64,000 nt of DNA from Octopus vulgaris. Lineage: Eukaryota. Every line of letters begins with the position of its first letter. Position 1 is the first letter of the stretch. Both the position numbers and the translations under genes were made by a program. The stretch lies in the NCBI GenBank assembly GCA_951406725.2, contig OX597831.1, forward strand, positions 59,272,001-59,336,000. Direction: 5' to 3'. Of this stretch, positions 44,112-47,569 are shown piece by piece. The notes below the pieces were generated by a model. That model worked only from the letters and a program-made list of their open reading frames with translations, did no database searches and was not told the DNA's origin.

Positions 44112-46537
44112 CTCTCACTTTTCACCGTGTGTCAAGCTAATGCATTCCTTGTACACACACTCTTGTCTGAACATTTTACTCGTTTATTTGAATTGAGTAT
44201 TTACTGCACGCTCACACGGACTGTCCCCGTCCTTCCAACTGATTTGGAGTACCTGATTCATAGAATTCTTACTCTATCCTTGGATTACCTTGCTTTAAAA
44301 TTCCTTCCGAGCATGTCGTTTCTGCACTTTTGATTATGCATATATCCATGCCTTGGTATATTTATTTGTTAATGCTAACAAAATACCAGCCGAACGCTCC
44401 ATAGAGGGAAAACCTGCTACAGTTTAGATGGAAATACAAGTTTATTGTCCAGTTCACACTTTCAAAAGCCATGAATGCAAACTCAGTTGTCCAGAACCAC
44501 AGCTATTGGAGCAGAAAGCATTCAACCGAAATGTGCCAAGCCACCGTGACAATTCTTCTTGTGCAGATTATTGATATTTACCGGCCCGTCTCGAGTGAAA
44601 TTAAAATAACGCAGGTTTTTAATTATCGCATCATCAACTCCTTCTATAAAAGAAACCACCTGTCATGCAGCAGCCACAGAGATGCTCCTTCTTGCTGATC
44701 GCTAGGAAGTCATGTTACTTTATTTCTCAAGCCTCATTCGGGACACCTACACCAGAGTCTGTCCGTAGAGAAGAAATACAGCTTTCGTACAAGGAAAAGT
44801 ATTGCAACGCCACAACGCCACTGTGTGTTCAACAAGTAAAGTGCACTGCAAAGTTGATACCACCTTTTTGAACTCGTCGAAGATATTCAACATTTTCTCA
44901 GAACACGAGTCACTAAAACCGCTTCAAAACGTTTGGGGATTGTAAATAATACATTTAATAGGAAGAGCGATAATGCTGGATCTTAAATTTCTCCTCCTAA
45001 TTTCATTGTAAGTAATGTCGCAATGACAGTATAAGGAGAAAATGAATGTAGTATGTGGAAAAAGGAAACCGATTCCAAAAATAAATAATACAACAATGAA
45101 ATGAATCTTTATCTGCGGATATTTTATCATGCCATTTGAATGCTTGACTAGAAAGTGAGATACAACTGTATTAAAAACTTGATTCATGAATTATTAATGA
45201 AACACGTCTACAGAGAAGTGAGTGTAATACCAAAATAACATTTAGCCTTTCAAGAGTCCGTTATAAACGCCGTAGAGAAGTATAAGCACTGCATAACAAT
45301 TCGAAGAGAATTCAGAGACATTCGTAGTTGTTAATGATATTCAACAACACCAAAATTCTAATAACTTGCAAGTTTAGTAAGTACTTCAAGAGAAATGGTA
45401 CACTTTAAAATAATCACAGGCTTCAATTGCTTTGCATAATAGGCAACATCTGTAAATATGTCCGACTGCATTTACTTAGATTAGAGTACATGTAGCCCCG
45501 TGATATTTAGACTTCCTTATTATTCATTGAAAGTTTGTGGATTTATTCAACAACATCTACAAATACAAGTAGCTGCGACAATTTCTATTTCATATTGATT
45601 TTTTTCCTTTGCCCTTGTATCAATAGGTTTTAGAATATGTCACACAAACCTTTCAGTCGTTGAATATATGTGTATTCAGTGCATTTGACATAAGTTTACT
45701 GGCGACTGATGCAACATAAATGGCTTCCCAGCATAAATTTGATAAATATTGAATGCGAGTTGGATATTTCAGAATCACTGGCGATAATTCAAGTAATTTA
45801 TTCCAAATATTTGAATCACATCATTAAATTGGTTGGAACGAATTGGTTTATTACAATGATGCATATTATCGAATTTGATCCTTTATTTCAGATCTTCACT
45901 CATGTTTCTACCATTCAGAACGACTATAGAAACAGTCTTGCTAATTTTCAAAATGTTCTCTTTTTGTTATCATTCAGAAGATCTTGGCCAACTTATACAT
46001 CACAACATTAGTATATTACCGCCAGTCTGATATATTTAGAGCTAAATTTTGTCTCACACGATTCATTGAATGTTTAGTATATATGACGTGCGTAAGTATC
46101 TCAGCGAAATAAATGGATCTATTATTCAGGAAAATACTATTTACTTATGTAACGGTTGTACTGGATAAATTGGGAAAATAAGTCTAACAGTTTAAATACG
46201 AAGTAATAAGCATACTCAATTTCATTTTTACCAGGTAAGTTTCGAAAATTAATGGGTTATTTTCCTTGGCTGTATATGAGGATCACTTCCATGGGTGAAT
46301 GGTTTATTTCCCTCGGTTTTTTGAAATAGAATATTTCTCCCCCAAAATTTTAACTACAGTTTTGCCTCTATAGGAATGCCTTACTCTGTAACTCACGTGG
46401 GTGGACAGGGAGAATACTAGATCTCATTTGTATTTTTGGATTCGCTGGTACTGGTGGTCTGGCATGGTTTGTCCGGTGTTACTCAAATCGGACGGGTATG
46501 TTTGATTTTTAGTACTTTCAAATTCAAATCAGAAGAA

Positions 46538-46608
46538 ATCTCTGAGCTGATGAAGGAAATGTTGGCGTTTAGTCAACTAATCCAGAAACAGGCTTGTCCT
46601 CGGGTGAT
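46538..46608 (+). ncRNA. Type I hammerhead ribozyme, copy 1 (intact core)
   Basis: ATCTCTGAG-CTGATGA(46547-46553)-A GGA aat GTTGGC gttta GTCAAC taa TCC A-GAAA(46585-46588)-CAGGCTT-GTC(46596-46598)-CTCGGGTGAT; stem I ~9 bp with G.U pairs and one bulge; near-palindromic stem III ACAGGCTTGT. Confidence 0.8.
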
Positions 46609-47097
46609 CTCATATGGATGTGATCTTTCGTTGATTTTCCCTTATACTTATGTGAGTTATTTCTGAGTATGCATTGTCTGGGAGATTTTTCTTGCAGTAG
46701 AAGAAATAGCCAAATTTTTGGCTGCTATTTCTAAAACGTTGTGTATGTTGTAAAGTACTTTACCCTATTTTTATAAAGTAATATTTCAAATATACCGTAA
46801 ATGGTCGTTTTACATACCGAACACTGCTCGGTCAAATTAATTAATAATTTAATAATTAATCAATTTTACCCTTTTTTATTGACAATATAATACTTTCTCC
46901 CCAAAAATGTTAACTACAGTTTTGCCTCTGTAGGAATGCACTACTCTGTAACTCACGTGGGTGGACAGGGAGAATACTAGATCTCATTTGTATTTTTGGA
47001 TTCGCTGGTACTGGTGGTCTGGCATGGTTTGTCCGGTGTTACTCATATCGGACGGGTATGTTTGATTTTTAGTACTTTCAAATTCAAATCAGAAGAA

Positions 47098-47168
47098 ATC
47101 TCTGAGCTGATGAAGGAAACGTTGGCGTTTAGTCAACTAATCCAGAAACAGTCTTGTCCTCGGGTGAT
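47098..47168 (+). ncRNA. Type I hammerhead ribozyme, copy 2 (intact core)
   Basis: CTGATGA 47107-47113, GAAA 47145-47148, GTC 47156-47158; same stems as copy 1, stem III ACAGTCTTGT. Confidence 0.8.
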
Positions 47169-47569
47169 ATCATATGGATGTGATCTTTCGTTGATTTTCC
47201 CTTATACCTATGTGAGTTATTTCTGAGTATGCATTGTCTGGGACACTTTTCTTGCAGTAGAAGAAATAGCCAAATTTTTGGCTGCTATTTCTGAAAGGTT
47301 CGGTATGTGGTAAATTAAATTATTTTACTTTACCCTATTTTTATAAAGCAATATTTCAAATATACCGTAAATGGTCGTTTTACATACTCGGTCAAATTAA
47401 TTAATAATTTCATAATTAATTAATTTTACCATTTTTATTGACAATATATATATATATATATATATATATATATATATATATATAGATAGATAGATAGATA
47501 GATAGATAGATAGATAGATAGATAGATAGATAGATAGATAAATAGATAGATAGATTTAGATATATATAA

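Follow-up and report, generated by a model that had tools for sequence, protein, structure and literature searches.

What is the 560-nt tandem repeat, bounded by two hammerhead motifs, that lies in this window (the whole stretch of octopus DNA analysed, 64,000 nt), and how was it copied there? The available parts of the literature treat as unsettled how animal retrozymes get copied into DNA, and the locus bears on that question. We consider it likely that it is a two-unit insertion of a dispersed, non-coding, retrozyme-like family, probably mobilised in trans by a Penelope-like reverse transcriptase (RT)/endonuclease. The features to which we refer are these:

46334–47448, + strand: the whole insertion, almost exactly two repeat units in a single arm
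46538–46608, + strand: predicted type I hammerhead 1, predicted cut after C46598
46538–46546 with 46599–46608, + strand: stem I of hammerhead 1
46547–46553, + strand: core CUGAUGA of hammerhead 1
46555–46583, + strand: stem II of hammerhead 1, flanked by unpaired A 46554 and A 46584
46585–46588, + strand: GAAA of hammerhead 1
46588–46597, + strand: palindromic stem III of hammerhead 1
46599–47158, + strand: 560-nt monomer between the two predicted cuts; it has no coding capacity and folds strongly (z −6.0)
47098–47168, + strand: predicted type I hammerhead 2, same core as hammerhead 1, stem III weakened, predicted cut after C47158
47159–47448, + strand: incomplete last unit, which stops at unit position ~290 (site B, the family's second commonest 3' end)
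47446–47555, no strand: (TA)n/(GATA)n microsatellite at the 3' junction, likely insertion target

The tandem and its predicted hammerheads

The earlier note on this DNA described two nearly identical 560-bp units. The tandem itself stands; identity is closer to 96%, since the units at 46334–46889 and 46893–47448 differ by 22 substitutions in 545 aligned bases and by 22 gap columns with two 10-nt indels (self-BLAST aligns 46317–46889 with 46875–47448 at 92.0% over 585 columns). The same note proposed a non-coding monomer, and this agrees with the frames: the longest ATG frame in the repeat has 38 aa and the longest stop-free stretch 81 aa, and frames and arm maps reveal neither protein-coding capacity nor LTRs in it, an RT or GIY-YIG ORF being likewise absent. 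Folding z scores for the monomer are −6.0 and −8.9. The 46334–47448 insertion has no inverted arm that we could find.

CUGAUGA starts at 46547 and at 47107, and the cut sites predicted after 46598 and 47158 are confirmed as the places where GUC ends, 560 nt apart. A structural descriptor found exactly two type I motifs in the 64-kb window, namely hammerheads 1 and 2, while the chance rate is 0.025 motifs per window (40 dinucleotide-matched simulations). The Rfam search that the earlier note had suggested came back empty, the Rfam 15 covariance models giving no match at E ≤ 1 between 44000 and 50000. When folding is constrained, a bulged U divides stem I into 6 + 3 bp, and a 3 × 3 internal loop divides stem II into 3 bp and 6 bp; when the whole dimer is left to fold freely, it forms neither hammerhead. 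Stem III cannot fold alone into a hairpin but is palindromic, and in copy 1 it is a perfect 10-nt palindrome with a self-dimer energy of −12.3 kcal/mol. Both units had been called intact: both cores are, but the stem III of copy 2 is not, as a G>U change at 47152 leaves a cis dimer helix between copies 1 and 2 of only −5.6 kcal/mol. Elsewhere in the window, the sequence at 3434–3468 resembles a hammerhead core (CUGAUGA...GAAAC) but is rejected by the type I descriptor.

Each window copy is 4.9% from its nearest relative at another locus. This distance of about 5%, together with the weakened second stem III, suggests that the window copy is an older one, and probably a decaying daughter rather than a current source.

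A young family and its relatives

A DNA search of the 2.8-Gb genome yielded at least 148 matches, many in arrays, when the best 40 of 2002 candidates were scored, and an exact core pattern occurs in 262 copies against 0 in the control. The loci analysed are the 75 to which the first 100 cores of the list belong, on contigs C1 through part of C7; the sample is biased toward exact-core copies. In it, an arm carries one hammerhead at 65 loci, two at 7, three at 2 and four at 1, so that tandem hammerheads, two or more, are present at 10 of 75; C14 has an array of five. Cut-to-cut spacing in arrays is 555–564 nt. Divergence is 0.9% within arrays (40 pairs) versus 4.5% between them (740 pairs), and the median distance to the nearest other locus is 0.5%. 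Judged from its sequences, the family is young, dispersed and mobile, with copies on many contigs, single and tandem, and 262 exact cores. Pieces of this and related families (80% likeness) are also found in contigs of the sequencing runs X1, X3 and X6, which we guess to be RNA, and X12, of unrecorded kind; they include short pieces across the first cut site, from which RNA, level, ends and circularity cannot be read.

The A.A mismatch at the base of stem II, which the earlier note thought might reduce activity, is a fixed feature and no lesion: the base before GAAA is never anything other than A (262 versus 0 cores), and other families share the arrangement. If the A before G12 is taken as a second insertion, the motif matches the minimal hammerhead of Penelope-like elements (PLEs) in its extra nucleotide after A9, its G10.1–C11.1 pair and its palindromic stem III. 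The A.A can then be read as the known extra nucleotide after A9 plus a second unpaired A before G12; our literature search on a double-A core returned nothing specific.

Sister families extend the comparison. Family B (L131–L160; 1707 first-look candidates) is 65–70% identical over the unit, forms tandems of about 555 nt and keeps both As; the core of its hammerhead is U3-A8 or U3-G8, its stems I and II are paired but differ in sequence, and its palindrome is another one. A family B tandem at C2:149446022-149447363 has a spacing of 554–556 nt. Family C (L161–L190) has a homologous unit, a canonical G-C base to its stem II, which is long, and the palindrome ACGCGT, 6 nt in length. Across these homologous families stem I is built from different pairs (CTGAG/CTCGG vs TTATG/CATAA vs CTGTA/TACAG), the core pair varies (C3-G8 vs U3-A8), and three different palindromes make up stem III. 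That the stems covary, with pairing kept across families 65–70% identical, argues that the hammerhead fold is under selection, which is not proof of cleavage. The same double A recurs in an unrelated short repeat family (L101–L130), with a perfect ACAGCTGT palindrome, a GUA cut site and TA/CA repeat ends.

One alternative is that the locus is a local tandem duplication, satellite DNA or an assembly artefact that carries a hammerhead-like motif by chance. The empty Rfam search would fit it, but such an origin does not account for a family found on many contigs, singly and in tandem, with stems that covary, and the chance rate given above and the 4% divergence and two indels between the units speak against it too, so we consider it extremely improbable. 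We thus take the tandem not to be an assembly artefact, a possibility that the earlier note had raised.

Two further observations concern other repeats. More hammerhead families, with a ATTGATTCAAT-type stem III and an AUA cut site, lie in flanking repeats at L003:2339 and L016:3422. In the window, 15306–15496 is an inverted two-arm sister-family fragment between TA tracts, whose 3' module is ~73% identical to the unit.

Insertion footprints and the search for a partner

The main arm ends in a microsatellite at 71 of the 75 loci, against 195 of 1521 background flank windows (13%), and 41 of the 75 carry a second, inverted arm, always joined head-to-head and never tail-to-tail (0/75). The 3' ends of 123 arms fall at unit positions 160–215 (65 arms), 270–295 (18), 235–260 (5) and elsewhere (14), 21 being unmappable; the preferred ends lie in AT-rich sequence, some 190 and 290 nt beyond the predicted cut. 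The 5' ends are scattered, with variable truncation. Among the 34 two-arm loci that could be mapped, 33 have one arm at the main site, and in 29 the two arms do not share an end site, the separation being about 95 nt in 13 of these; a strict rule of two fixed ends was discarded, since site A and site B are paired at only 13 of the 34. Section 6 of Craig et al. 2021 (10.1101/2021.04.23.441226) describes 5' truncation, partial tandems, an inverted 5' copy and a (TA)n preference for Penelope-like insertions. The proposal of Penelope-type mobilisation is supported by the insertions, which look Penelope-like in their microsatellites and head-to-head arms, but finds no support in the RT at 18060–19440 to which it had been linked.

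That remnant is related to Penelope, an intact PLE protein matching it by tblastn at E 3e-17, but it is interrupted by stops and a TA insertion, it ends, by eye, in a different hammerhead family, and it has nothing in common with the unit at E ≤ 1; Pfam found nothing in two open pieces of it. At its end, 17800–17900 (− strand) is a partly deleted copy of the terminal repeat of this other Penelope family, whose minimal hammerhead also occurs at 39327–39376 (+ strand), at 39335. The open frames at 32487–33221 and 52954–53442 look like Mariner transposase remnants.

An autonomous partner sharing termini with the family was sought more widely. The termini of 30 of 148 GIY-YIG loci examined, and of 17 near-intact PLE loci (17 of 20 extended loci analysed), contain no unit sequence, and at 0 of 75 loci does a PLE protein match join a family copy in the right place and orientation. 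Other candidates were set aside: the matches in L058 and L077 belong to separate sister-family insertions, and the PLE ORF in L049 (376–2676, − strand) is a separate, unrelated neighbour, whose 767-aa open frame follows another one and is 27% identical to the protein of a 781-aa family. The latter (L081–L097) is young, autonomous and Penelope-like: 16 of the 17 loci analysed have intact 781-aa RT + GIY-YIG frames, and the family shows inverted 5' copies as well as a U3-A8 hammerhead close to its 3' end; the copy inspected ends in (TA)n, and the frames carry the Cys motif that marks Neptune/Nematis types. It is plausible that these proteins are the trans-acting enzymes of the 560-nt family, though the two have no common termini.

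These results also bear on the possibility that the unit is the pseudo-LTR, or 3' end, of an autonomous Penelope-like element, and the arrays its truncated remnants. The hammerhead, the target and the inversion pattern are those of PLE pseudo-LTRs, 24 of 57 Xenopus retrozyme families are homologous to known transposable elements, nearly all of them PLEs, in the available text of Li, Clavereau and Pollet 2026 (10.64898/2026.07.22.740005), and our partner search covered the best-scoring candidates only. Upstream of the hammerhead, however, copies stop or enter another unit, and neither a correctly joined PLE protein match at any of the 75 loci nor unit sequence in the 30 GIY-YIG and 17 near-intact PLE termini was seen, so that we judge this origin improbable. 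Homology to the pseudo-LTR of an autonomous PLE is known for fewer than half of the Xenopus families, and a retrozyme need not have it.

A more serious contender keeps the dependence on a Penelope-like element and dispenses with the circle: uncleaved linear multimers would be copied, and the hammerhead would be weak or have another role, for example in freeing the RNA from a host transcript. Among 248 post-cut segments only four were seen starting downstream of the cut; copies run across the cut site, so the template must have been continuous there, either as a circle or as an uncleaved multimer. Nor are 5' junctions enriched at the cut. We considered 49 rows near the hammerhead, of which 25 were judged by eye to be 5' junctions and 24 were dropped (21 because the core was complete, though slightly changed or of another subfamily, 2 because the indel was internal, and 1 as ambiguous); 4 of the 25 are no more than 3 nt from the cut versus 3.2 expected (p 0.40), and 3 lie at +1 to +3 (p 0.15). 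An early small-sample hint of an in-vivo cleavage footprint was given up on this genome-wide count. Eight of the 25 junctions fall at unit −35 to −30, toward the tip of stem II, where the RT may stall or switch template; this was noticed post hoc.

Linear copying also accords with the single hammerhead per arm at 65 of 75 loci, the outcome expected of progressive 5' truncation, and with the Xenopus retrozyme dimers, of which one of nine tested cleaved and eight did not, in the available text of Li et al. (10.64898/2026.07.22.740005). Variants private to a locus and present in all its copies, seen at only 4 of 32 multi-copy loci, and arm lengths, which show no clear one-lap excess (9 of 100 arms at 540–600 nt versus 4, 4 and 7 in neighbouring 60-nt bins), do not separate the two precursors. 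The homogeneity of the arrays fits a circular or a linear precursor alike, and the junction joining 47158 to 46599 is present in the family's genomic tandems as well, so sequence alone cannot separate a circle from tandem read-through. Against linear copying, the core, the stems and the palindrome of stem III are kept by covariation, which implies selection on the dimer fold; the sister families retain tandem units of similar length; and truncation alone shortens arrays, yet homogeneous arrays of three to five units occur at several loci. We therefore regard linear copying as unlikely, though the least so of the alternatives.

Proposed mechanism and comparison with known retrozymes

We propose that read-through transcripts of an array would bring two hammerheads together through the palindromic stem III, and that these would cut after GUC; such cleavage by a dimer is, for the family as a whole, quite likely. 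The released monomer would then be ligated into a circle, a step that we slightly favour, given that the dimer fold is conserved and given what has been published on how retrozymes behave. A Penelope-type enzyme would nick the (TA)n tract, and the nicked DNA would prime on AT-rich stretches of the RNA, a part of the scheme in which we have high confidence. Since (TA)n is self-complementary, priming could often start from both DNA ends, giving two arms joined at their 5' ends, which would explain the head-to-head arms, and copying round the template would give multimers. The strongest form of the proposal is that the double-A core, with an unpaired A on either side of the stem II base, is a catalytically active dimer that has become fixed in three or more families, and that the 560-nt circle is copied by a Penelope-type enzyme, primed from both ends of a cut (TA)n tract at the two AT-rich sites; we put it forward tentatively, as less likely than not. 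Were it true, the genomic footprints would be direct evidence for the long-proposed retrozyme–Penelope mechanism. A young family offers clean footprints, with a target, preferred priming points and a two-armed structure, and between the family and its relatives the hammerhead varies naturally (A.A base, U3-A8 core, canonical base) while the scaffold stays homologous, which could serve cleavage assays and tests of the circle model; the window copy, being old, is not the best choice for an assay.

In comparison with known systems, the family likely represents, on the evidence of its sequence, a new family of a known class, the animal non-LTR retrozymes. In the available text of the two papers on metazoan retrozymes (PMC7229834; 10.64898/2026.07.22.740005), these are likewise non-coding tandems of low GC with one type I hammerhead per unit, present as dimers to multimers and many solo copies, and their dependence on PLEs is a standing hypothesis. 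The GC content here, 0.33 over 46001–48000, is within the described range of under 45%. The earlier note considered 560 nt longer than usual; units are indeed typically ~300 nt in what is available of Cervera and de la Pena 2020 (PMC7229834), but the published range of 51–972 bp in Li et al. (10.64898/2026.07.22.740005) includes it. The latter apply the term 'active', in the same available text, to two consecutive units with complete motifs, and the window tandem has these. The species list of that 2026 preprint, in its available form, names no mollusc. Our literature search found no paper on cephalopod retrozymes, Repbase and Dfam being outside the comparison, and 235 hammerhead loci are listed, but not analysed, in the giant squid genome paper.

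Unlike metazoan retrozymes as described in the available text, the family has a hammerhead that approaches the minimal type of PLEs, for which the accessible sources report weak activity, with a second unpaired A before G12; microsatellite-targeted, two-armed insertions are not described for retrozymes in the portions available of PMC7229834 and 10.64898/2026.07.22.740005. Compared with the EN+ Penelope-like elements, as far as they are covered in the available parts of 10.1101/2021.04.23.441226 and PMC4209133, the family lacks an RT or GIY-YIG ORF, and its arms often end ~95 nt apart, versus a 30–40 bp tail in those elements. A parallel to its core is the axolotl retrozyme HHR_Amex2 (available text of PMC7229834), which has a U.U at the base of helix II and cleaves, better as a dimer, whereas the predicted hammerhead of the octopus family has an A.A there, or two inserted As around a G-C pair.
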